Shown here one piece after another: positions 17,931 through 32,314 of a stretch of 64,000 bases of DNA. Position 1 is the stretch's first letter. Each line of letters opens with the position of its first letter. Origin of the DNA: Escherichia coli (GTDB lineage Bacteria > Pseudomonadota > Gammaproteobacteria > Enterobacterales > Enterobacteriaceae); NCBI RefSeq assembly GCF_048403405.1, contig NZ_CP183129.1; one strand, 5' to 3'. The notes under the pieces are model-generated. The model was not told the origin of the DNA and did no database searches. It saw nothing but the letters and a program-made list of their open reading frames with translations. Position numbers and translations under genes: made by a program.

Positions 17931-17963
17931 AGCCCGACGAACTGTTTCGCCGGGCTGATTTTT
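17931..17963. terminator. bidirectional terminator between perM and focB
   Basis: AGCCCG-n14-CGGGCT hairpin followed by GATTTTT. Overlaps the focB stop. Confidence 0.5.
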
Positions 17964-18810
17964 AGGGTTCCTGACGTAAATAAATAGCCCGATAACAAAT
18001 ACTCACCAGCACTGCACCGCCGATAATATTACCCAGCATCACCGGGAGCAGATTGGCGGTAATAAAATGGCTGACCGTCAGTACCGGAAAATTGTCTGCG
18101 CTACTGTGCGCCAGTTGCCAGAAGGAGGTAGGGGCGAAATGGCGAATGGCAATGGCGAACGGAATCACAAACAAATTGGCGATACAGTGCTCAAAACCAC
18201 TGGCGACAAACAGGGTGATGGGCAAAATCATGGCGACGATTTTGTCGCATAACGAACGTCCGCAATAACTCATCCATAGCGCCAGACAAACCATCAGATT
18301 GCACATAATGCCGAGGCTGACTGATTCAGTAAATGTATGATGCATTTTGCCCTCGGCGCAGTGTAAAACCGCGACTCCCCACATCGCGTTTTCACTCATC
18401 ACCAGCCCGGAAAACCAGATTAACAAACTGAAACAGGCAATACCTGCCAGATTACCGCAGGCCACCAGAAGTGCATTAATCAGCCATGTTCGCCAGCTAA
18501 TAACGCCCCGACTTTTTGCCATCACCGTCATTACCGACGAGGTGAACAGGCTGGTGCCGCAAACCGCTAGCAAAATAAAGCCGAGTGTAAAGCAAAAACC
18601 GCCCACCAGATGGGTTAATGCCTGTGAAGACGGGGCATCGGCGATAACGGTAAGGTAAAAAGTAAATCCGATCGCCATAAACACGCCTGCGGACATCGCC
18701 ATTAAAAAGACCGACACTTTGCTGCGGGCAATTTTATGGGCGGCAATCCGTTCAGCGATTGCCGCTTTTCTGGCGCTCAACTGCAAGTCGAAAGAGAGTT
18801 TGTTTCTCAT
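17962..18810 (-). CDS. focB: formate channel FocB (FNT family)
   Basis: 282-aa track ORF. Polytopic membrane protein. Position immediately downstream of hyfR. Confidence 0.9.
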   Translation of the reverse strand: MRNKLSFDLQLSARKAAIAERIAAHKIARSKVSVFLMAMSAGVFMAIGFTFYLTVIADAPSSQALTHLVGGFCFTLGFILLAVCGTSLFTSSVMTVMAKSRGVISWRTWLINALLVACGNLAGIACFSLLIWFSGLVMSENAMWGVAVLHCAEGKMHHTFTESVSLGIMCNLMVCLALWMSYCGRSLCDKIVAMILPITLFVASGFEHCIANLFVIPFAIAIRHFAPTSFWQLAHSSADNFPVLTVSHFITANLLPVMLGNIIGGAVLVSICYRAIYLRQEP

Positions 18811-18831
18811 GAATACTCCTGCAAAAGCAGA

Positions 18832-20844
18832 TTACAACACCTCGCGAACCGAGATCCCCAGACGCTGCATTCGTGACAGCAGCGTGGTGCGCTTCATCCC
18901 TAATCGTGTCGCCGCGCCACGGGGCCCGGCAACAATGCCATTGGTTTCTCGCAATACCTGAACAATGCGCTGACGTTCTTCTTCGTCATTCTCTGGCGTC
19001 ATCGGGTGCAGCAACTGCGCCATTGAACTGCGAAGCGCTGAATCTTCATTTAGCGTCGGCAGTAAACGGCTTTGTCGGACATTAAGATGTAAATTCAGAC
19101 TGTTACCACGAGTCAACAGTACCGCCCGCTCAATCACGTTTTCCAGCTCGCGCACGTTGCCCGGCCAGTCCCACGACATCAACTGGCGTAGTGCCTCGGT
19201 CGGGATGGCGTCAATTGCGCGATTCATATGGCGCGCCATTTTTTGCGTGAAATGCTTTGCTAAAAGAGGGATATCTTCCGGACGGTCGCGCAGTGGCGGC
19301 AGTTCCAGTGGGAAGACATTCAGGCGATAAAAGAGATCGCTGCGAAACTGGCGATCTTCAACCATTTGCCACAAATCACGGTTGGTGGCGGCAATGACTC
19401 TGACATTTACCGGGATCGTTCTACTCCCGCCGAGACGCTCAATCTCCCGTTCCTGCAATACGCGCAGCAGTTTAGGCTGAAGTTCTAACGGCAGATCGCC
19501 AATTTCATCGAGAAACAACGTGCCGCCATCGGCAATTTCAAAACGACCACGATGGGTATTAATCGCACCAGTAAATGCCCCTTTGTCATGACCGAATAAC
19601 TCACTTTCCAGAAGACTGGCGGGGATGGCAGCGCAGTTGATTTTGACCAGTGGCTTGTCGCGTCGTGGGCTAAGTTGATGGATCGCTCTGGCGATCACCT
19701 CTTTGCCGGTTCCGGTTTCACCACAAATCAACACCGTACTGTCGCTCTTCGCCACAATATCTACCTGCTGGAGCAAATCTTCCATTGCCTGGCTTTGATA
19801 GATAATGTCACCGACGCCCAGATTCGAAAGGAGCTGCTCGCTAAGCTGGTGGTTTTCTTGCTGCAAGCTTTCCTGCAAATCGGTCATGCTGCGCCAGGCA
19901 TCGGCATTGCCAACGGCAATAGCGATGCGATCGGCAATATGTTGTAGTAGCTGGCAGTTTTCCTCACTAAAGAGAGTGGAAGAGGTATGCGCCAGCAACA
20001 ATGCGCCCGGTGTATGGTTGCCAAAGGTGAGCGGTATAAGGAGCGCAGATTCGCAGCCGTTAGATGCAAGTAAGTGTAATAACGGGTCGCGTTGCCAGAG
20101 AAACAGATCGTCTGCACGGTGCGTCAAGGTCGGTTGTCGGGTTTGTAGCGTTTGTGTCAGCAATACACTTTCGCCAGGCATACAGCGTGGCAGACACGCA
20201 CAATGTGAGGCAGAAAGATCGCTGCACCACAGGCTGAACTTCTCGTTCTTTCGATGATCGCCCAGTACCATACTGACTGAAGCCAGACCGAAAAAATGAT
20301 GGATCTCACGAGCGACGTCTGCGATCAGATCGTCGAGATCAAGATGTGACAACACTGCATTAGTGATATCCACCAGTACCCGATGATGATCGCGATCTTT
20401 CTCCAGCAAACGCAGCGCCACCTGCTGTTCTTCATCATTGAGCCATGATTGCAGAACCGGAGTGATTATGTGTGCCAGCCAGTTAAACAGTGTGCAATCC
20501 TGGGGAGTAAAACGACTGCCGTGGGTGCGAATAAAGCGTAGCTCCGCCATTCCACTACTGCCGAGAAGGACGGCGTGGCGCGAATAATCGACCATCTCAC
20601 CCTGATACTCTGTTGTTGCCGTCACATCGCTGCCATCATCATGGTAGCGGTAATAGAAGTTGCTTTTGAGAACATGCAGTTCAATAAGTTGTACCGGGCT
20701 GAACGGCGGCGGCAGCGGGATGAAGGCGCGTAATAAAGACGCCTTGCCGTGTTTCTGCGCTAACCGCTCCGCGAGCATTCCGTTTACCGCTTCAATTGTT
20801 ATTCCTTGCGGCGGGGCAAACATCGCCTCGTCTGACATAGCCAT
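18832..20844 (-). CDS. hyfR: sigma54-dependent transcriptional activator HyfR (FhlA-like)
   Basis: Track ORF 18832..20847 trimmed to the second Met (670 aa). AAA+ sigma54-interaction motifs GETGTGKE and GAFTGA, C-terminal HTH. Confidence 0.93.
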
Positions 20845-20873
20845 CAACAGTCCTTATTAATGAGAAATCCTTC

Positions 20874-21287
20874 TCACGCAATTTTTCTGGCCATCAGATA
20901 GATGGCCGGTTCCTGCACAATTTCATCCAACAGATGAATGAATTGAATGCTACGCGCCTGCCACGCCGACTTCGCGTCATCTGCCAGTGGCGCGAATGCC
21001 TGGGTCAACAGGGCGGTGTGGCTGGCGTCAATAACAATCTCACCAAAGGTCATCACCCCCAGCATCTTACGTCGGGCTTGCTCCTCTTCGACCTGTGCAA
21101 GCCAATCTTCGTATTCCGTCTGTGGGCAGCGGAAGGCGACATTCAAACAATCAATCACGCCAACGTGATGACCGATAGCCAACGAGTAATACATTACCTG
21201 GGAGCTGTGTTCCGGCATCTCGTCGCTACTGGCGATAAATTTTTTTCGCAGCGTCCAGAAAACAATTTCCCCGCACGCCTCAGCCAT
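20874..21287 (-). CDS. hyfJ: hydrogenase-4 maturation/accessory component HyfJ
   Basis: 137-aa track ORF. Position in the hyf operon. Confidence 0.9.
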
Positions 21288-22038
21288 GTAACCCCCGGAG
21301 AACGCGAAAGAGTTGCTGAACGATACTATTGAGACGCGGATCGTCAGCTTCGCGCAACCAGGTGTTAACCCGATTTCCTGTAGGATCGTCGCTTAAATGG
21401 CGCAGGAGCCGATCGCAAATTTCTCGCCCCTGACGATAGCCCGCCAGCCGCCTCGCTTCTCGCTCAATGGCGATACGCTGTGATGGCGGGATTTGCGGCC
21501 ACAGCGGTTGCATGGTCACTCCGGTGGGATCGCGATAATCCACCGCGTGAATCTTCTGTTGCAGCAAACCGAGCGCCACGGCGAAACCGTGAATGGTGGC
21601 GGCCGGTGTTGGCGGGCAGCCGGGGATCCAAACATCAATGGGGACAATGGTGTCGCTGCCGCCCCAGACGCTGTAGAGATCGTGGAAAATACCGCCGCCG
21701 ACACCGCACGCGCCGTAGGAAACACAGATTTTATGATCGGGGGCAGACTCATACGCCCGAAGTGCAGGCATACGCATCGCCCGGGTGACTGCGCCAGTAA
21801 ATAACAAAATATCGGCGTGACGCGGTGATGAAACAACCTTAATGCCAAAACGTTCTGCGTCGAATACTGGTGTGATGGCGGCAAAAATTTCGATTTCGCA
21901 GGCGTTGCAGCCGCCGCAATCGACGCGATAAACGTAGGCCGAGCGACGGATATCCTGTAACAAATGCTGCTTCATCTTTTGCGTTTGCTCGTCCAGCGTG
22001 ATGGGCTGGCTGACATGTTGCGTAAGCACTGGACTCAT
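21280..22038 (-). CDS. hyfI: hydrogenase-4 small subunit HyfI (NuoB-like)
   Basis: 252-aa track ORF with Cys-containing NuoB-like segments ([16 protein letters not shown]). Confidence 0.93.
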
Positions 22039-22580
22039 AGCTGCTCCTTAGCCACCAGCGGTTCATCTGTGTCGTCGTTGATCAGCGTCGCGCGTTGTTT
22101 GCATTCCGGGCAGACGCTCGCTTGCGCCCGTAACATTTCGCGGTTTTGTGGCGCATTTTGTTGCTGTGCCAACAGTTCTGCAGCCAGTGCGACGGTTTTT
22201 TGCGGGGCAAACGGGCGTTCGCAACGGCTGCAACGTTGTAGATGGAACGTCGCGCGGGTATAGAGATCGGCTTTATTGGTGACGGTCAGTTCAAAGTTAT
22301 TGGTAAGCTGAATGGCTCTGGTCGGGCACACTTCTTCACAACGTCCGCAGTAAATACAACGCCCCAGATAGAGCTGCCAGGTGCGCGAATTTTGCTGGTC
22401 GTCGGTCTGGATAGTCAGCGCATTTGCCGGACAAGCACAGGCGCAGGCACCGCAGGCAATACATTGGCTGGGCATCAGGTCCGGTTTCCCGCGAAAGCCT
22501 GGGCTGACTTCCAGTGGTGCGAAGGGATATTTCACCGTCGCGGTTCCGGCGCGCATAATAGTTTTCAGTAACTTCAGCAT
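22035..22580 (-). CDS. hyfH: hydrogenase-4 4Fe-4S ferredoxin-type subunit HyfH
   Basis: 181-aa track ORF with two CxxCxxCxxxCP ferredoxin motifs. Confidence 0.93.
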
Positions 22581-22589
22581 CTTCTGTCC

Positions 22590-24305
22590 TTACTTCAGCG
22601 GCGAACGGTTACGATCAATGCCGTAGCGTTCGATCTCTTTATACGGCACGGTTTTTGACTGGCGCTTGCGCACATCAACCAGCGTCACACGGTCGGTACA
22701 GGAGTAGCAGGGATCAAGGCTACCGATAATCAGCGGTGCGTCAGAAACGGTATTGCCGCGCAGCATGTAACGCAGCACTGGCCAGTTGGCGTAGGTGGCG
22801 GCACGACAGCGCCAGCGGAACAATTTTTGGTTATCACCGAGCATGCTCCAGTGCACGTCTTCACCGCGTGGCGCTTCAACAAAGCCCAGCGCGAATGCGT
22901 GAGGTTTATAGCTAAAGCCTTCGGTCAGCAGTGGGGTATCCGGCATGTTGTCGAGGGCAAATTCCAGCATTGCCAGCGAATCAAACGTCTCTTTGACACG
23001 GACCATCACGCGGGAGAAGACATCGCCGCCGGTAAAGGTAAACAGCGTTTTTGGAATATTGCCGTAGTCGGCGTAGGGGTGATCAAAGCGCAAATCACGG
23101 GCAAAGCCACTGCCGCGGATCAGCGGCCCTACGGGGCTATAATCACGGGCGATTTGTCGGTCGAGAATGCCAATGCCCTGAGTGCGTTGTTCCATATTTG
23201 GCGTGGCAAGCAGCATCTCTACCAGCTCCGACACGTCGGCGCGCATCTCACGCACCAGTTTCAGCGTTTGCAGACGTTGCTCTTTGAGAATATCGCGGCG
23301 AACACCACCAATCAGATTCAGACCGTAGGTTTTACGCGACCCGGTCAGCAGTTCCGCCATCGTCATCGACTTTTCCCGCACGCGGAAAAATTGCATAAAG
23401 CCGGTATCAAAACCAACAAAATGGCAGGAGAGGCCAAGGTTGAGCAAATGACTATGCAGCCGTTCGACTTCCAGCAGAATCGAGCGAATAGTATGCGCTC
23501 GTTGCGGCACCTCAATCCCCAGTGCATTTTCAACCGAGTTGGTATAGGCCACACTGTGGGCAAAACCGCAAATCCCACACACGCGGTCGGATAAGAAGGT
23601 CACTTCGTTGTAGCCCATCCGCGTTTCTGCCAGTTTCTCCATGCCGCGATGGACATAAAACAGGCGGTAATCAGCATCGACAATTTGCTCGCCATCCACA
23701 AACAAGCGGAAGTGACCTGGTTCATCGGAGGTGATATGCAGCGGGCCGACAGGGATCACCCGCGCGTCGCTGTTGCCCTCGTTGATAAACGGATACGTTT
23801 CGGTATCAGTCGTCGGTTCAGGGCGCAGTCGATAATCCATCGCATCTTTGCGCAGCGGATGCATATCTTCCGGCCAGTCATCGGGCAACACCAGGCGACG
23901 CTGATCCGGCAGGCCAACCGGAATCAGCCCGTACATATCGCGAATTTCTCGCTCGCCCCAGACCGCGGCAGGGACGCGCGGTGTGACTGACGGAAACTCC
24001 CGACTGTCGGCATCGACCAGTGCCTTCACCACGATCCAGCATTTTTCAGCCCCTTCCATTGAAAGGGCATAATAAACCGCGTAATGACCGTTAAGTGTCC
24101 GCTCGTCGTTGCCAAACAGGACCGGAAGCCAGCCATCATGTTGATAATAAAGATAATGTACAACGTCAGGCAGCAGATTGATTTTCACCGTAATGGTGAC
24201 CTGTTCAGGCGTTTGTCGCTCTTCATCCAGCACCGCGCCGGGGAACTGCGTTTTCAGGGCGGCGAGAATCGCTTCGCCACGATTTGACGATGAATTAACG
24301 TTCAC
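22590..24305 (-). CDS. hyfG: hydrogenase-4 catalytic large subunit HyfG (NiFe, HycE-like)
   Basis: Track ORF 22590..24350 with HycE-like sequence and a C-terminal DPCYSC NiFe ligand motif. Start set at the in-frame GTG at codon 16 ((M)[11 protein letters not shown]); the exact start is uncertain. Confidence 0.88.
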
Positions 24306-25875
24306 TGTGTTTCTCCGAAACAGATGCGGTGCCTGAAGGCAAAAAATCATGCCAGGTGCTACGTTGTGCAGGCAGGTCGTGCGTCCCTGAGAGGACTATA
24401 GTGGAAGCGCCCGCCAGGATCCTGATGACAGGTTGTGGAATATGCGTTCCCATCGCCAGCATCATGACCAGCAGAATCACCATTGGCGAGGTGGTCAACC
24501 AGCCAAGTTCACCCCGGTTAACGGCCTGCGGCGGTTTCGCCATTAACACCCGCGCAGCCATCCGTACCAGGCCCGCCAGCACCAGCGTTAACAGCAATAA
24601 CAGCAGGACGATAATCAGCAGGTGATTACGTGCCAGTCCGGCGGTAACGGTCATAAATTCGCTAAGAAAAATGTTGAAGGGCGGCATCCCTGCCAACGCC
24701 AGCGCACCGCCGCCAAACAGCACGGCGGTAAATGGCATGATTTTAAGCATTCCGCAGACGACGTTGAGATCGCGCGTGCCGTACTTGAGCAGTACATTGC
24801 CGGAACCGCAGAACAGCAGCGTTTTTGCCAGACTGTGGTTTAAGGTGTGCAGCAGCGCAGCAAAAATTCCCAGCGGCCCGCCAATGCCTAGCGCCACCGC
24901 GACCAGTCCCATGTTCTCCACGCTGGAGTACGCCAGCAGACGCTTAATGTCCCGCTGTACCAGAATGAAAAATGCCGCCACGGCAACCGACAACATGCCG
25001 AAGATGAGCAACAACCGGTTGGGGAAATCGCTGCCGATGGCCTGGCAGATAATGATGTAATAGCGAATCAGCACCAACAGCGCGCAGTTCAGCAATACGG
25101 CGGAGAGCAGGGCGCTGACCGGACTCGGCGCTTCACTGTGAGCATCCGGCAGCCAGGCGTGCATGGGAAATAGCCCGGTTTTGGTGCCAAAGCCAATTAG
25201 CACAAACACAAAGGCCAACAGCATTAATGTTGGGTCAAGCAAGGACGATTGCTTAAGAACCTCGCTCCAGAATATCGCCATTTCTGCCTGCGGCATAACG
25301 CTGGCGGCGTTGGCGTATACCAGCACGGTACCGAACAGACCAAAAGCGACACCAACAGTACAAATAATGATGTACTTCCATGCAGCTTCCAGCGATGAAC
25401 GCTGACCGTAAATGCCTACCAGAAACGCCGAGCTTAAGGTGGTGGCTTCGATCGCCGCCCACATCACAATCAGGTTATTGCTGGTAACAACCAGCAGCAT
25501 GGTGAACAAAAACAGATGGAAGAAACCGTAGTAATCGCACAGCGTAACGGGTGAAAGCTCGCCGTGCTCCACTTCATGACGCATGTAGCCAATCGAGTAA
25601 ACACCGGTGAGAAAGCCAATCACACCAAGAATGGCGAGGAACAAACCGCCCAGACCATCAATATGAAGCCACAGTCCCGCAGCGAATATTTCTCCCGCAT
25701 CAGCGGCAGTTTGGACCACCCACAGTGCCAGAATCAGCAGCAGTGTGATCCCTAAGCTATGTAGTACTGTCACCGTGCGAGTCGCAGAGTGCCCCTGTTT
25801 CCGGCAGGCAAAACAGAGCAGTGAAAAAAGCAGCGGCGTGAGCAGGAGTAAAGCGAACATCACAGAATAACTCAT
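24295..25875 (-). CDS. hyfF: hydrogenase-4 membrane subunit HyfF (antiporter-like, NuoL/M/N family)
   Basis: 526-aa polytopic track ORF. Position in the operon. Confidence 0.93.
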
Positions 25876-25879
25876 CTCA

Positions 25880-26530
25880 TTATCCCTTCAGCGCGGTCAA
25901 GTTGTTCACGTCCAGCGTGCCGTGGGTACGCCATATTTTTCTTGCCAGTAACACCATTACAATGACGGCGAAGATGGCGTCGGTAGCGATACCAATTTCC
26001 ACCAGTTCCGGTGCACGCCAGGCAAGAAGCGCCAGCACCAGATGGGAGCCGTTTTCCATCAGGCAGTAACCAAAAATTTGCCGCAGGATATTGCGCTGGC
26101 TGACAATGCACAGCAGGCCAAGCAGAAAATGACCTAACGCCACCGCCAGCGCCGGTTTCAGCCCGGTAGCCATCGGTAGCTTCACGGGCTGAACGACAAA
26201 TGCGCAAAGCAGGACAATTAATGCCGCGAGCAATGCCATCATTGCCGGACCGAATAACGCTTTTTCCGGGATGTTCTGGGGAATATTTCGTGCAGCGTAA
26301 ATCATGATTAACGGTACCAGCAGCACTTTGGTGATAAAGGCGCTGGCGGACCAGATCAGCAGTTGCTCTGCGACGAACAGGCACGAGAGGGTGGCGAAAA
26401 TAGACACCAGCACCAGCGACTGGCAGGCGTAAAATCCGCATGACAGGCGATAGCTTTTGACACTAATCACAAACAGCGATGTCAGCATCATCAGTCCCGC
26501 CAGATTATTTACGATCATAGAACCGGTCAT
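25880..26530 (-). CDS. hyfE: hydrogenase-4 membrane subunit HyfE
   Basis: 216-aa polytopic track ORF. Position in the operon. Confidence 0.9.
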
Positions 26531-26541
26531 TCATCATCTCC

Positions 26542-27981
26542 TTACTGCAACCAGGTCGCGGCGATTACGCTGGAAATCAGCGACATCACAATCAGTACAA
26601 TCAACACCAGGCGCATTGACCCTGGCAGCGGTGCGGCATCGGCGACGGCCTCGCTCGGTTTGCCAGGCACAACGCGACCAAACCAGCGAATAAACCAGGC
26701 GAAACTGGCGACCGATTCAATCATCAGCAGAATCATGGCGGGCAGCAGGATCCAGTACTCCACTGACAACGCAAAACCGGCAGCAAACAGCGGGAATTTA
26801 CTGAAGAAGCCGTTGAATGGCGGCACGCCGGTAATTGCCAGCGCTGCCACGCAGAAACCCACGCCAGGCAACGGCAGGGTGTGCAATACGCCACGCAGAC
26901 GCGGCAACAAGCGCGTGCCGCAGCTGTAACTCAGCGCACCTGCTACAAGGAAAAATAGGCTTTTAGCGAACGCGTGGTTGACGATGTAGGCGATGCTGCC
27001 CTCCAGTGCCAGCCGCGAGCCGAAGATGGAGAGCGACAAGCCGAAGAACATCCAGCCAAGTTGAGTGATGGTCGACCAGGCCAGCAACCGCTTCATATCC
27101 TGCTGTGGCAAATACATCAGGAAGCCGTAAAGAATGGTGACCAGTGCCATGACCATGCCAACGCCGCCAATCACATGCGGGATATTGCCGCCGTCGATAA
27201 TGGCGCGGGCAAAAATGTAAACGCCCACTTTCACCATCGATGCGGCGTGGAGATAGGCGCTGATCGGTGTTGGCGCTTCCATTGCATCCGGTAGCCACGC
27301 TTGCATCGGTAGCTGGGCCGATTTCCCCCACGCGGCAAACAGGATGCCGCCATAAACCAGATAACGTGCATCGCCGTGTAACTCGTTCATCGCGCTAAGC
27401 GCAAACGTTCCGGTCTGCAAAAACAGCGTGGCGGCGGCAAGATACAACCCCAACGAACCGATATGGGTAATAAGCAACGCTTTTAGTGCCGAACGCTGCG
27501 CTTTATCGCTCTGGTAATAACTGATCAACGCCCAGGAGCAGCCGCCCGTAATTTCAAAAAACAACAACTGACCGAGCAGCGTCGAAGAGAGTACCAGTCC
27601 CGCCATCGCGCCGATAAACAGCAGCAAAAATGCGTAATAACGATTCGTGCCGTTATGCGGGTGTTCGCGATTTTTATCCGTCAGATAACCCGTGGAGTAG
27701 ATCGTGACCAGCAAACCGAGAAACACCACCACAAACAGAATCAGCGTACTCACGCGATCAATGACCAGGCCAAACAACGCCACATCCCCCACGTTGACCA
27801 ACGTCAACGTGACGGCAACTTTATCGGCCTGATAAAACGCGGAGATCAGCGACAACATGCACAGCGTGGTCAGCGCGGCGAACAAAATCCCCCATTCGGC
27901 GGCCCGACGTTGTGGCGAAAACGAAACGACCAGTGCGCCGATAAAAGGCAGCAATAACGTCGTCAGAGCAAGATTTTCCAT
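26542..27981 (-). CDS. hyfD: hydrogenase-4 membrane subunit HyfD (antiporter-like)
   Basis: 479-aa polytopic track ORF. Position in the operon. Confidence 0.93.
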   Translation of the reverse strand: MENLALTTLLLPFIGALVVSFSPQRRAAEWGILFAALTTLCMLSLISAFYQADKVAVTLTLVNVGDVALFGLVIDRVSTLILFVVVFLGLLVTIYSTGYLTDKNREHPHNGTNRYYAFLLLFIGAMAGLVLSSTLLGQLLFFEITGGCSWALISYYQSDKAQRSALKALLITHIGSLGLYLAAATLFLQTGTFALSAMNELHGDARYLVYGGILFAAWGKSAQLPMQAWLPDAMEAPTPISAYLHAASMVKVGVYIFARAIIDGGNIPHVIGGVGMVMALVTILYGFLMYLPQQDMKRLLAWSTITQLGWMFFGLSLSIFGSRLALEGSIAYIVNHAFAKSLFFLVAGALSYSCGTRLLPRLRGVLHTLPLPGVGFCVAALAITGVPPFNGFFSKFPLFAAGFALSVEYWILLPAMILLMIESVASFAWFIRWFGRVVPGKPSEAVADAAPLPGSMRLVLIVLIVMSLISSVIAATWLQ

Positions 27982-27997
27982 ATTTCGTCAGTGCTCC

Positions 27998-28945
27998 TTA
28001 CAGACCGGTTAACCAGAAGACCCATGCAAGCGCAGCAAGGCTGAAGCCAAGCCAGGTCACATGGTGAATGAGTAAAAAACGCCCGCGTGCCAGCGTGTTT
28101 TCTGCGATTGAGGCCAGTACAAAAATCAGCAAAACCTTGAGCAGCGTAACGACAAGTGAAGTCAGCAGGCAGGCGAGAGAAAGTTCTTGCGCGCGCCCAA
28201 AGGGCAGAAACAGGGCCACAAACAGTGCTGCCATCACGACCTGTTTCAGCCCCAGCCCCAACTTCGCCAACGCCAGCCCGGCACCGGAATATTCGGTCAG
28301 CGGGCCTTCCTGTAATTCCTGTTCTGCTTCAGCAACATCAAAGGGAATTTTTCCCATCTCAATGAAGCAGGCAAAACCACAGGCCAGTAACGCCAGTACG
28401 GTGGTTAGCGGCGAGTTCCAGCCCGTCGCCAGCGTCTTGCTGATCATCTCGATATGCGTGGAATCCGCTATCAGCGCCAATACCAGCAGTGAGAGAAGGA
28501 GCATGGGTTCGACCAGAATGCCGAGCGTCAACTCGCGACTGGCACCGACTCCCGCAAAGGGGCTTCCGGTATCCAGCCCGGAAAGAGCAAAGAAAAAACG
28601 AAACAGGGCAAGAAGATAGATAAGGGTGATCAGATCGCCGCCGCCCGCAAAAGGGGAAACGGTAATAAATAGTGGCAGGGCCATCGCCAGCACCAGCATG
28701 CTGCTGATTAATACCCACGGCATCAGGCGGAACATCAGACCTGAAGATGTCGGCGCAACTTCCTGGCGTTTAAACAGTTTGTGGATATCGCGATAATCCT
28801 GCCAGATCCCCGGTCCGCGACGGGAGTGCATTCGCGCGCGTATCTGCCGGGAAATCCCCGTAAAAAGCGGGGTTAGCACCAGCAGAGTCACGGCCTGTGC
28901 TAACGCAAAAATGATCAGATATCCGTCGCAAAGAGTTTGTCTCAT
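27998..28945 (-). CDS. hyfC: hydrogenase-4 membrane subunit HyfC (NuoH-like)
   Basis: Track ORF 27998..28966 trimmed to Met 8 (MRQTLCDGY, 315 aa). Confidence 0.9.
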   Translation of the reverse strand: MRQTLCDGYLIIFALAQAVTLLVLTPLFTGISRQIRARMHSRRGPGIWQDYRDIHKLFKRQEVAPTSSGLMFRLMPWVLISSMLVLAMALPLFITVSPFAGGGDLITLIYLLALFRFFFALSGLDTGSPFAGVGASRELTLGILVEPMLLLSLLVLALIADSTHIEMISKTLATGWNSPLTTVLALLACGFACFIEMGKIPFDVAEAEQELQEGPLTEYSGAGLALAKLGLGLKQVVMAALFVALFLPFGRAQELSLACLLTSLVVTLLKVLLIFVLASIAENTLARGRFLLIHHVTWLGFSLAALAWVFWLTGL

Positions 28946-28955
28946 GGTGATTTCC

Positions 28956-30974
28956 TTAGACGGCAATAGCGATTAGCAGCACAACCAGTGCGGCGACCAC
29001 ATACAGGCAATAGAGACGAAAGTCGCCGCTTTGCAGATGCTGTATTTCTTTGGCCAGCCGTTGGGTGGCGCTCACGATGGGGCGGATCACCCGCTCATCC
29101 CAGAAGGGTTCTGTGCTCTGAGCCCTGGCGGTGACATGCGCAAGACCTTTGTTCAGCCTCAGCGTAGGGTCGAGCTGTTGTCGTAGACGAAATAGCGCAC
29201 AAAAGACCACACGCAGCGGTTGCATCACGCCATTGCCTGACGGGGCCATCGCATTATCCCAGCCGTAGCCGCATGCCCAGGCATCTCCTGTGCGACGAAA
29301 CGCTGCGCGGCGCGAACGACACCACAGCCAGTAAAGGCCAGGCAGCAAAGGCATCGCCAGTAGTAACAGCAACAGTAATGAGGGAGTGACCCGTGTATGA
29401 AACGTGCCTGGTACAAGTGCTATTCCGCTGGCGACAGTGACGGGAGGGGTATTGGTAAACGCATGGGCAATGTGCATTATCTTCGGTGCCAGCCAACTGG
29501 CACTAAGCGCAATGAATATGCAGAGTGCCGCGAGCAGTAGCATGGCGACGATCATCGTATTCGGCACTTCCTGTGCCTCTTCAGCGTGTGTACTGCGCGG
29601 CGCTCCACAGAAAGTAATACCGTACATTTTGACGAAGCACATTACTGCCAGCCCACCAGTGACTGCCAGCATCACCATAGCAATAGGACCCGCAAGTTGT
29701 AGCGCTACGGCTTCCACACGACTTAGTGAGAACAGCGACTGCCAGGTGTACCATTCGCTGATAAAACCATTCAGCGGAGGAATGGCTGATATCGCGAGGC
29801 AACCAATCAGGCATGCTGCGGCTGTCCACGGCATCCGTTTTGCCAGTGCCCCCATTTTTTCCATGTCGTGGGTATGCAAACGCGAAATAATCGCACCCGC
29901 GCCGAGAAACAGCAGCCCTTTGAACAGCGCATGGTTGAGCAGATGAAACAGCGCGCCGAGCAGTCCAACAACGGTGAGCAGCGGGTCGTGCAGTGACAGA
30001 CCGACCATCGCCACACCGACCGCCAGCAAAATAATGCCGACGTTTTCGACGGTACTCCAGGCCAGCAGCCGTTTGATATCCTGTTCCGCCAGCGCATACA
30101 GCACGCCCAGGAGCGCGGAGATTGCGCCGATCGCCATCACCAGAATGCCCCACCACAGCGGCAAACCCGTTTGCGCCAGCAGGTCCATCGCTACTTTCAG
30201 GATGCCGAAAATACCGATTTTGACCATTACGCCAGACATCAACGCCGAAGCGTGCGATGGTGCGGCAGGGTGAGCGCGTGGCAACCAGCTGTGCAACGGC
30301 ATCATCCCGGCTTTCGCGCCAAAACCAAAGAAGGCCATCAGGAACACCGCCGACGCCAGCCCCGGAGAAAGTGAAAGCGTGCGGAAACTGGCAAAATCGA
30401 GGCTGCCGCTTTCGCGCCCCATCAGCAAGAAGGCGATCATAATCAGTACCGATCCGGCGTGGGCGATAAAAAAGTAGAGCATGCCAGCGTTGATTGACGT
30501 TTTATCCTGCCTGGCAATGACCAGAAACCAGGAAGACAGCGACATCATTTCAAACAGCACGATGAACCAAAAAGCGTTGTCCATCACCAGCAGGGCAACC
30601 ATCGATGCGATGAAAAGATTCATAAAGAAGCCCATCGCCGCCGCGCCTTTGCCCTCGTATTCGCGCATATAAGTCAATGAATAGAGCGAACAAACCACCA
30701 CCAGCAAGGAGATAACCAGCACCATAAATGCCGAGAGGCTATCCATTCGCAGGGTTAAATCGGCAAAGTCAAAAGGCGTGGCAAAACGGGCGACTAAAAT
30801 TACGCCTGCATGTAATTGCGTAATTCCGCTGATGATGCCAATCACGCCACCCACCAGCGATGTGATGCCGGAAAGCTTAATAGCCAGTCTGTCCAGACCG
30901 AGTAAAAACAGCGAAGCCAGACTGGCAAACAGATAGAGGATCAGCGACCAGGTTAATAATTGCAGGGCATCCAT
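28956..30974 (-). CDS. hyfB: hydrogenase-4 membrane subunit HyfB (antiporter-like)
   Basis: 672-aa polytopic track ORF. Position in the operon. Confidence 0.93.
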   Translation of the reverse strand: MDALQLLTWSLILYLFASLASLFLLGLDRLAIKLSGITSLVGGVIGIISGITQLHAGVILVARFATPFDFADLTLRMDSLSAFMVLVISLLVVVCSLYSLTYMREYEGKGAAAMGFFMNLFIASMVALLVMDNAFWFIVLFEMMSLSSWFLVIARQDKTSINAGMLYFFIAHAGSVLIMIAFLLMGRESGSLDFASFRTLSLSPGLASAVFLMAFFGFGAKAGMMPLHSWLPRAHPAAPSHASALMSGVMVKIGIFGILKVAMDLLAQTGLPLWWGILVMAIGAISALLGVLYALAEQDIKRLLAWSTVENVGIILLAVGVAMVGLSLHDPLLTVVGLLGALFHLLNHALFKGLLFLGAGAIISRLHTHDMEKMGALAKRMPWTAAACLIGCLAISAIPPLNGFISEWYTWQSLFSLSRVEAVALQLAGPIAMVMLAVTGGLAVMCFVKMYGITFCGAPRSTHAEEAQEVPNTMIVAMLLLAALCIFIALSASWLAPKIMHIAHAFTNTPPVTVASGIALVPGTFHTRVTPSLLLLLLLAMPLLPGLYWLWCRSRRAAFRRTGDAWACGYGWDNAMAPSGNGVMQPLRVVFCALFRLRQQLDPTLRLNKGLAHVTARAQSTEPFWDERVIRPIVSATQRLAKEIQHLQSGDFRLYCLYVVAALVVLLIAIAV

Positions 30975-31591
30975 TAGCGTTGCTCCTGAGTGAGGGAAAG
31001 GGGATCCTCCCCGCCATTGGCAAACCAGCTTGCGGCAAGGCGCTGTTTTTCTTTCATCTGACGTTGCAGGCTATCGTCGGTGATCAGCCGTAACGCCTGA
31101 TTCGGGCAAGCGCGAACGCAGGCCGGACCTTCTGGCAAGAAATCACACAGGTCGCATTTCACCGCGACGGTCTGGACACCCGGTTCCCAGCGCAGCAAAG
31201 CATGTTGGGTCGGCGCGTTTTCTTCGCCGTCTTTGAGTGAGCCGTCAGCCTGAAAAACATATTGCGCAGGGGCATTCACCGGACGGCTTCCTGAAGCGCT
31301 GATTGCGCCAAATGGGCAGACCACGGCGCAAAGCTTGCAACCAATACAAAGGCTTTCGTTGAGTTGGATCGCATCATCCCTCTGGGAAATGGCATTGACC
31401 AGGCAGACCTGCAGGCAAGGGGCTTCCTCACAGTGATGACACACGACAGGGGCAGTGAGTGTTGACGTCTTCGCCAGGGCCAGGCGCGGGTGTTGCTGTA
31501 AACCTTGCGTTTTATGCACGTCCGAACAGGCAGCGAGACAGGTATTACATCCTGTACACCACAGTGGTTCGGCCACCACAAAGCGGTTCAT
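30974..31591 (-). CDS. hyfA: hydrogenase-4 iron-sulfur subunit HyfA (HycB-like ferredoxin)
   Basis: Track ORF 30974..31630 trimmed to Met 14 (MNRFVVAEPLWCTGCNTC, 205 aa), which is preceded by AAGGAG. Multiple CxxCxxC motifs. Confidence 0.9.
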   Translation of the reverse strand: MNRFVVAEPLWCTGCNTCLAACSDVHKTQGLQQHPRLALAKTSTLTAPVVCHHCEEAPCLQVCLVNAISQRDDAIQLNESLCIGCKLCAVVCPFGAISASGSRPVNAPAQYVFQADGSLKDGEENAPTQHALLRWEPGVQTVAVKCDLCDFLPEGPACVRACPNQALRLITDDSLQRQMKEKQRLAASWFANGGEDPLSLTQEQR

Positions 31592-31629
31592 GTCGGCTCC
31601 TTGAAAATGATATGAAACATTGCATTTCA

Positions 31630-31649
31630 TATTGCATAAAGGATGCCAG
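31630..31649 (-). promoter_or_regulatory. candidate sigma54 (-24/-12) promoter of the hyf operon
   Basis: The minus strand reads CTGGCAT-CCTTT-ATGCA, with GG and GC at consensus spacing, about 40-55 bp upstream of the hyfA ATG. Coordinates uncertain by 1-2 nt. Confidence 0.5.
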
Positions 31650-31843
31650 TCTTATTAATTTAATATATTCAATAAGTTATGAATTAACTGGATTCTGAAC
31701 GGTACAAAAATGATGGTCATTAACGTTCAGCAAAAAATGGATTCGACACCCGTGTCGCAGGGGAACGCGAGAATGTGATCTTGATCACGAGAAGTGAGGT
31801 GTGCTGGCCGCAAGCGCAGCCAGCACGGAATGGAGCAAAGTAA

Positions 31844-32314
31844 TCAGGCGTGTTCTTTCAGCCAGTTCAGCACAACGTCGTGGTGATTGCTGGTTTTAAA
31901 ATCGTCAAAGACATGTTCGATTTTGCCATCAGCGTCAATCAGGAAGCTGATGCGATGAATACCATCGTAGGTTTTGCCCATGAAGGACTTTTCACCCCAG
32001 ACGCCGAATTGTTCGCACACCTGGTGGTCCTCATCAGACAGGAGCGTAAAGTTAAGCAGCTCTTTTTCCGCAAAACGGGAGAGTTTTTCAGGTTTATCGG
32101 TGCTGATACCCAGCACATCAACGCCCGCTTTTTTCAACTCATCCATGTTATCGCGTAAGCCGCAGGCCTGTACGGTACAGCCGGGGGTCATGGCTTTCGG
32201 GTAGAAATAAACCAGAACACGCTGTCCCTGGAAGTCGGTCAAATTAACTTGTTCTCCGTCTTGATCCGGCAAGCTAAATTTCGGTGCGATATCACCGGCT
32301 TTCAGTGGATTCAT
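31844..32314 (-). CDS. bcp: thiol peroxidase Bcp (bacterioferritin comigratory protein, peroxiredoxin)
   Basis: 156-aa track ORF (MNPLKAGDIAPKFSLPDQDGE) with peroxiredoxin motif PGCT. Confidence 0.95.
   Translation of the reverse strand: MNPLKAGDIAPKFSLPDQDGEQVNLTDFQGQRVLVYFYPKAMTPGCTVQACGLRDNMDELKKAGVDVLGISTDKPEKLSRFAEKELLNFTLLSDEDHQVCEQFGVWGEKSFMGKTYDGIHRISFLIDADGKIEHVFDDFKTSNHHDVVLNWLKEHA

Follow-up and report, generated by a model that had tools for sequence, protein, structure and literature searches.

The hycA, hypA, fdhF, and hydN promoters of the Escherichia coli formate regulon, which are sigma-54- and FhlA-dependent, share with the hyf promoter a -24/-12 element with GG-N10-GC spacing, an AT-rich bendable spacer, and activator sites of the GWC-N6-GWC type, which precede the -24 element by some 80-105 bp. 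The hyfA promoter of E. coli K-12 (hyfAp) is sigma-54-dependent as well and is reported to be activated by FhlA and HyfR. In work by Skibinski et al. in 2002, hyfA-lacZ expression was reportedly sigma-54-dependent and the primer-extension start is said to lie 30 bp upstream of hyfA, which would be position 31621 of the window analyzed here, a 64,000-nucleotide stretch of an E. coli chromosome. The hyf operon is nearly silent in E. coli, which is a long-standing puzzle. In sigma-54 ChIP-seq of K-12, the promoter was recovered as peak OS23 with the motif ATGGCATCCTTTATGCA, assigned to hyfA with a FAT of 16, a predicted start 31 bp from hyfA, and the flag 'C' for experimentally confirmed in EcoCyc; its PSSM score of 10.5 is in the range of those for fdhF (10.98) and hydN (9.2) (Bonocora et al. 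2015, PMC4591121). In genomic SELEX with the RpoN holoenzyme, the bcp>hyfA spacer gave a 92% peak, and addition of NtrC made it the strongest of all peaks (100%) (Shimada et al. 2021, PMC8743547). Induction of hyf by formate, low pH, and anaerobiosis via FhlA or HyfR is described in the title of Skibinski 2002 and in statements in PMC7658346. Other Enterobacterales hyf (FHL-2) operons, such as that of Proteus mirabilis, likewise have a sigma-54 element 40-85 nt upstream of hyfA and FhlA-type sites further upstream, and in P. mirabilis the activity of the hyf promoter is lower in rpoN and fhlA mutants (PMC7658346).

The minus strand of the window carries the genes gcvR-bcp-hyfABCDEFGHIJR-focB. 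Several RefSeq E. coli genomes match a 701-bp minus-strand query covering the bcp-hyfA junction (31300-32000) with 100% identity, and their annotation of this region comprises the 3' part of bcp, a spacer, and the 5' part of hyfA; the gene order dapA / gcvR-bcp-hyfA-hyfB is shared by K-12 MG1655 and a 100%-identical strain. Downstream of hyfA, the minus strand has ORFs whose sizes fit hyfB through hyfJ, followed by hyfR (18832-20847) and focB (17962-18810). The top NCBIfam match of the hyfR product is the FhlA model, with 640.8 bits vs. an equivalog cut-off of 830, and the protein also matches AAA+ sigma-54 activator families. The motif flagged upstream of hyfA is, almost certainly, the sigma-54 (RpoN) -24/-12 promoter that serves the hydrogenase-4 operon, hyfABCDEFGHIJR-focB. 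This promoter is already textbook knowledge: K-12 hyfAp has the same locus, gene order, core sequence, distance to hyfA, and all of the conserved upstream blocks described below, and the aligned bcp-hyfA regions are 98% identical. The strain-specific difference is one polymorphic base outside the core, namely the base before TGG, which is A in K-12 and C in the window, the latter being closer to the YTGGCAC consensus; the few further substitutions between the two sequences fall at non-conserved spacer positions. The coordinates of all features are collected in Table 1.

Table 1. Features of the hyf control region and associated genes in the 64,000-nucleotide window.
Feature	Coordinates	Strand	Description
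hyfA coding sequence	30974..31591	-	First gene of the operon, 205 aa plus stop; as in RefSeq records of a 100%-identical strain and K-12; matches to 4Fe-4S ferredoxin families
hyfR	18832..20847	-	Same operon; FhlA-paralogous sigma-54 enhancer-binding protein; coordinates of the mechanical ORF
GC-rich hairpin	31801..31826	-	Right after the bcp stop codon; inverted repeat with 11-nt arms, 91% complementary, 4-nt loop
CRP site CGTGATCAAGATCACA	31774..31789	.	Centre at about -160.5; also resembles an FNR site
Palindrome CGACACGGGTGTCG	31744..31757	.	Candidate FhlA/HyfR UAS; centre at about -129 relative to the start and ~103 bp before the -24 element
Invariant block TGACCATCAYTTTTGT	31704..31719	-	About -90 from the start
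IHF-like site ATTCAATAAGTTA	31667..31679	+	Between the upstream sites and the promoter; one mismatch to WATCAANNNNTTR
Sigma-54 -24/-12 element CTGGCATCCTTTATGCA	31633..31649	-	GG at 31647/31646, GC at 31635/31634; K-12 ChIP-seq core, RpoN gSELEX, conservation
Predicted transcription start	31620..31622	-	5' UTR of ~30 nt
13-codon in-frame extension	31592..31630	-	Part of the mechanical ORF; judged non-coding (promoter-proximal DNA and 5' UTR)
Shine-Dalgarno AAGGAG	31597..31602	-	5 nt before the hyfA ATG; GGAG kept in all relatives examined

The hairpin directly behind bcp is likely the end of the bcp transcript and the upstream edge of the hyf control region. In genomes that lack hyf, homology to the window stops at about 31795-31790, just downstream of this hairpin. 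The boundary is located 1-6 bp upstream of the CRP 16-mer and, thus, the complete hyf control region, from the CRP site through the -12 element, travels with the ~13.8-kb block. The bcp-hyfA spacer was found in 4297 out of 5426 complete E. coli genomes. Approximately 1127 of the 5424 bcp-bearing complete E. coli genomes are without the whole hyf-focB block (window ~17950-31795), and in these genomes yfgO directly follows bcp.

The -24/-12 element is co-oriented with hyfA and located in the bcp-hyfA spacer of 252 bp, where the minus strand reads aag-aCTGGCATCCTTTATGCAat-ATG and, over a longer stretch, AATAAGA-CTGGCATCCTTTATGCA-AT-ATGAAATGCAATGTTTCATATCATTTTCAAGGAGCCGAC-ATGAACCGC. Its 16-nt core TGGCATCCTTTATGCA (TGGCAT-CCTTT-ATGCA, 31648-31633) is identical to that of K-12, has the canonical GG-N10-GC spacing, and differs from TGGCAC-N5-TTGCA by two mismatches (ATGCA instead of TTGCA at -12 and TGGCAT instead of TGGCAC at -24). 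The -12 C is positioned 43 nt upstream of the hyfA ATG (31591), and the whole core extends from 42 to 57 nt upstream of the A of this codon. The first-pass annotation had described TGGCAT-N5-ATGCA with correct GG/GC spacing about 40-55 bp upstream of a hyfA ATG preceded by a ribosome binding site, and both the motif and its measured distance from the AAGGAG-preceded ATG bear this out. Its additional claim that the promoter overlaps the N-terminal extension of the ORF has to be divided: the stretch from -12 to +1 does run over the first codons of the extension, whereas the -24/-12 element only abuts ATG 31630.

Taken alone, the motif is no better than chance in 64 kb. The consensus TGGCAC-N5-TTGCA with at most two mismatches has 29 matches in the window vs. 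29.8 expected. With the RpoN scoring matrix derived from 186 promoters and printed in PMC7658346, the element scores 12.15 bits out of a maximum of 21.1, the eighth-highest score in the window, and 64 kb of Markov-1 random sequence should contain 7.5 equal-or-better sites. By an estimate from this random-sequence rate, the expectation for the correctly oriented strand of the 252-bp spacer is ~0.015 such sites, and the match thus gains significance only once its position is considered. The window contains seven sites that score at least as high as the promoter, and they are mostly on the minus strand within the hyf gene span. The matches at 27145-27160, 20405-20420, 19007-19022, and 21563-21578 (all on the minus strand) reach 12.2-13.6 bits in this gene span; those at 20405 and 19007 are inside hyfR, and the match at 21563 is ~700 bp upstream of hyfR. 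None of these sites is found in the K-12 sigma-54 ChIP-seq tables, where b2481 is the sole b248x entry (PMC4591121). Because the motif alone is at the chance level, the evidence must come from its context. It is carried by the position of the element relative to the gene, by its preservation at orthologous loci, and by the constant distance to an activator site.

A search of genome contigs with HyfA identified 45 loci from other genera, 43 of which were usable. The same search gave no loci from E. albertii, E. fergusonii, or Shigella, and within-genus divergence was sampled from E. coli strains only. A sigma-54 site of at least 12 bits is present within 150 nt upstream on the coding strand in 29 of the 43 HyfA-homologue loci; sites above the same threshold were found in none of the 43 loci on the opposite strand and in none within the first 150 nt of the coding sequence. 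In the distal segment from -600 to -450 relative to the hyfA homologues, four of the 43 loci have such a site on the coding strand, and these sites may drive hydrogenase or formate genes nearby. In the 30 aligned sigma-54 sites, the T-G-G, A, and T-G-C positions are invariant. For phylogenetic footprinting, we aligned two strains of E. coli, four Citrobacter loci, and two Kosakonia loci. The aligned spacer is largely diverged and contains islands of invariance from the CRP site to the hyfA start, including the -24/-12 element, which is aligned and invariant in Citrobacter and Kosakonia. Among seven sampled E. coli strains the 16-nt core is invariant, and the base before it is polymorphic (A/C). 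E. coli Res13-Lact-PEB14-36 has a 14-bp tandem duplication in the promoter, TGGCATCCTTTATGCAA-CATCCTTTATGCAAT, aligned to window positions 31646-31633; an intact -24/-12 copy is kept 14 bp farther from hyfA. The assignment of a sigma-54 promoter to hyfA by the first-pass annotation finds support in the identity of the core with K-12 OS23, the RpoN genomic SELEX peaks, and the conservation of the element across genera.

The palindrome CGACACGGGTGTCG is the best candidate for the activator site. Its core CGACAC-N3-TGYCG is invariant in Escherichia, Citrobacter, and Kosakonia, and it is also found in Atlantibacter. We compared it with the FhlA matrix from PMC7658346 (consensus TGWCRAWRATGWCA). 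The palindrome fits five near-invariant matrix positions (G2, C4, T10, G11, and C13) and has a matrix score of 5.0 bits, vs. 16.1 bits for the bona fide hyc site (hyc-hyp spacer) and 8.1 bits for the fdhF site. A scan of the bcp-hyfA spacer with this matrix gave no strong match, its best hit (9.9 bits) being the CRP site. The core GWCR-N4-TGNCR was further analyzed in 31 loci anchored on their sigma-54 elements: all matches are located between -200 and -41 relative to the -24 element, with none at -300 to -201 or at -40 to +99, and 30 of the 31 loci have at least one match. In 13 loci, from Escherichia (including the window), Citrobacter, Kosakonia, Atlantibacter, and one C. freundii, the core occurs at -100 to -103. 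Based on the near-invariant matrix positions that it matches and on the positional test of its core across loci, we favor, with reservations, the assignment of 31757-31744 as a candidate upstream activating sequence of the FhlA/HyfR type. The first-pass annotation had placed the motif where an FhlA/HyfR-dependent hyf promoter is expected, and this fits the conserved FhlA-type palindrome, the presence of hyfR in the operon, and the fhlA and rpoN dependence in P. mirabilis.

The hyf control region differs from the formate-regulon promoters in several respects. The spacer of its palindrome is GC-rich (CGGG), and its matrix score is below the range of 8.1-16.1 bits found for formate-regulon sites; in addition, hyf, unlike these promoters, has a strong CRP site and an activator paralogue of its own, HyfR. 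In contrast, hyf loci outside Escherichia, Citrobacter, and Kosakonia have upstream sites that are nearer to the FhlA consensus and contain an A/T-rich spacer, and they are without the CRP site and TGACCATCAYTTTTGT. The CRP motif (T/C)GTGA-N6-TCACA is conserved in Citrobacter and Kosakonia. In ETEC H10407, the CRP ChIP-seq motif given for hyfA is a 16-mer identical to CGTGATCAAGATCACA (PMC4287617), and a genomic SELEX study recovered hyfA as one of the known targets of cAMP-CRP (PMC3105977). The same palindrome resembles TTGAT-N4-ATCAA, and an FNR site predicted at hyfA was unoccupied in ChIP (PMC3688515). The invariant block TGACCATCAYTTTTGT is exact in all 13 loci from Escherichia, Citrobacter, and Kosakonia and occurs nowhere else among the fetched loci; related yGACaTC motifs are found at similar positions in Atlantibacter and Pectobacterium. 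Judging from these related motifs, the block may be a second activator half-site. In E. coli it is flanked by a CTGAACG/CGTTCAG inverted repeat, and PMC3946193 predicts a sigma-70 promoter whose -35 hexamer overlaps it. Escherichia, Citrobacter, and Kosakonia are among the few genera reported to have both hyc and hyf (PMC7654741). In the stretch that separates the upstream sites from the promoter, the core TCAA-N4-(G/A)TT (AAC-N3-TTGA in the direction of the operon) is conserved in the alignment. The sequence around it is close to the IHF consensus WATCAANNNNTTR and is a putative IHF site.

Two other readings of the spacer were weighed against these assignments. The GG-N10-GC motif might have arisen by chance, with hyf transcribed from a sigma-70 promoter, ATGACC-17-CAGAAT (31720-31692), and a 5' UTR of ~95 nt that includes ATG 31630. 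The chance frequency of sigma-54 matches of this quality, ~7.5 per 64 kb, would allow it, a genomic SELEX study with the RpoD holoenzyme gives these very hexamers for a constitutive promoter in the bcp>hyfA spacer (PMC3946193), and the -35-like TGACC is within the invariant block. However, only 8 of the 12 hexamer positions agree with the consensus, the hexamers do not pass the sigma-70 scan, which yielded no promoter in the region 31400-32000, and Citrobacter and Kosakonia do not retain the -10-like CAGAAT. Moreover, sigma-54 occupies the site in vivo and in vitro (ChIP-seq, PMC4591121; gSELEX, PMC8743547), and the sigma-54 element keeps its position from genus to genus, with clean controls. 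We consider a sigma-70 promoter very improbable as a replacement for the sigma-54 promoter, to which it may add weak basal transcription. Similarly, CGACACGGGTGTCG followed by AATCCATTTTTT could be a weak intrinsic terminator for bcp read-through rather than an activator site; the terminator scan reported it as a stem of 5 bp with a 4-nt loop, followed by T-rich sequence. In Citrobacter and Kosakonia, however, the right arm TGCCG breaks the stem and there is no T-run, yet the sequence is conserved; Atlantibacter, where the surrounding sequence is different, keeps the same motif at a fixed spacing to the -24 element, and a stronger hairpin already stands behind bcp at 31826-31801. We reject a terminator function, which appears quite unlikely, because it is the sequence that is conserved and not the stem.

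The remaining alternative concerns the translation start. The mechanical ORF (30974-31630) comprises 218 codons vs. the 205 aa of annotated HyfA, and if ATG 31630 were the true hyfA start, the gene would encode a 218-aa protein and the motif would stand in an unusually short leader or have some other role. The frame is indeed open for 20 codons upstream of 31591, with an ATG 13 codons upstream that is invariant in the sampled E. coli strains. Nevertheless, ATG 31630 is not preceded by a Shine-Dalgarno sequence, whereas AAGGAG stands 5 nt before 31591; the -13 ATG is absent in Citrobacter, which has only a TTG elsewhere, and in Kosakonia the in-frame start codon is at another position (-10); and single-base indels break the local frame within the extension stretch in both genera, while GGAG and the MNRF start are kept everywhere. 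The short form also prevails in the comparative data, since every HyfA homologue aligns from residue 1 of the short form and RefSeq annotates the start equivalent to 31591 in all seven records inspected (K-12 and other E. coli strains). The last conserved island consists of the Shine-Dalgarno sequence and the ATGAACCGCTTT start. Finally, the rule of PMC4591121, by which the start lies 19 bp downstream of the motif centre (31641), puts the start of transcription at 31622, i.e., 31 bp from the ATG at 31591 and downstream of ATG 31630. Given an ATG upstream of the predicted start, the missing Shine-Dalgarno sequence, and a start codon that is not conserved, the 13-codon extension is very likely non-coding, as the first-pass annotation had argued, and the chance that translation of HyfA begins at ATG 31630 is close to nil. 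A scan of 31300-32000 against Rfam with E-values up to 1 revealed no known RNA element in the leader.

A perfect 8-bp inverted repeat, ATATGAAA-N7-TTTCATAT (31632-31610), straddles the predicted transcription start and partly overlaps a 12-bp-spaced direct repeat of ATGCAAT. The inverted repeat is invariant in the sampled E. coli strains, absent in Citrobacter and Kosakonia, and was seen only in Escherichia. In NikR operators the half-sites are spaced by 16 bp; the repeat was considered as a NikR-like site and rejected, its TATGA/TCATA half-sites being 11 bp apart.

The preferred reading, a sigma-54 promoter driving the hyf operon, suggests the following scheme of regulation. RNA polymerase with sigma-54 would bind CTGGCATCCTTTATGCA on the minus strand as a stable closed complex, as described in the literature on K-12. 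FhlA or its operon-encoded paralogue HyfR would bind upstream, most likely at CGACACGGGTGTCG and possibly together with TGACCATCAYTTTTGT, as their conservation suggests. The AT-rich spacer with the IHF-like site would then bend, allowing the activator to reach the polymerase, and ATP hydrolysis by the activator would open the promoter, with transcription presumably starting from about 31621. The ~30-nt 5' UTR of the predicted transcript would carry AAGGAG, with translation beginning from ATG 31591. Since the in-frame ATG 31630 is upstream of the predicted start, the 13-codon extension would not be translated from this transcript. CRP, whose binding is known from the literature, would add catabolite control at CGTGATCAAGATCACA.

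Beyond annotation quality, the significance of this analysis is small: a known promoter, reportedly mapped in 2002 and since reconfirmed through sigma-54 ChIP-seq across the genome and through genomic SELEX, was recovered, and a 13-codon ORF extension was rejected, from the sequence. The case also provides a lesson, in that the motif alone is indistinguishable from chance and higher-scoring matches on the same strand in the hyf genes are not reported in vivo sites. The residual novelty is limited to the invariant block TGACCATCAYTTTTGT and the inverted repeat straddling the start. Either of them might be a dedicated operator, i.e., a HyfR-specific site that separates HyfR control from FhlA control or a site for a repressor, a proposal that we regard as unlikely; if true, such an operator could contribute to the near-silence of hyf in E. 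coli. The cross-genus footprint, which comprises the CRP site, the palindrome, the invariant block, the IHF-like site, and the -24/-12 element, could help to awaken the silent hyf operon.
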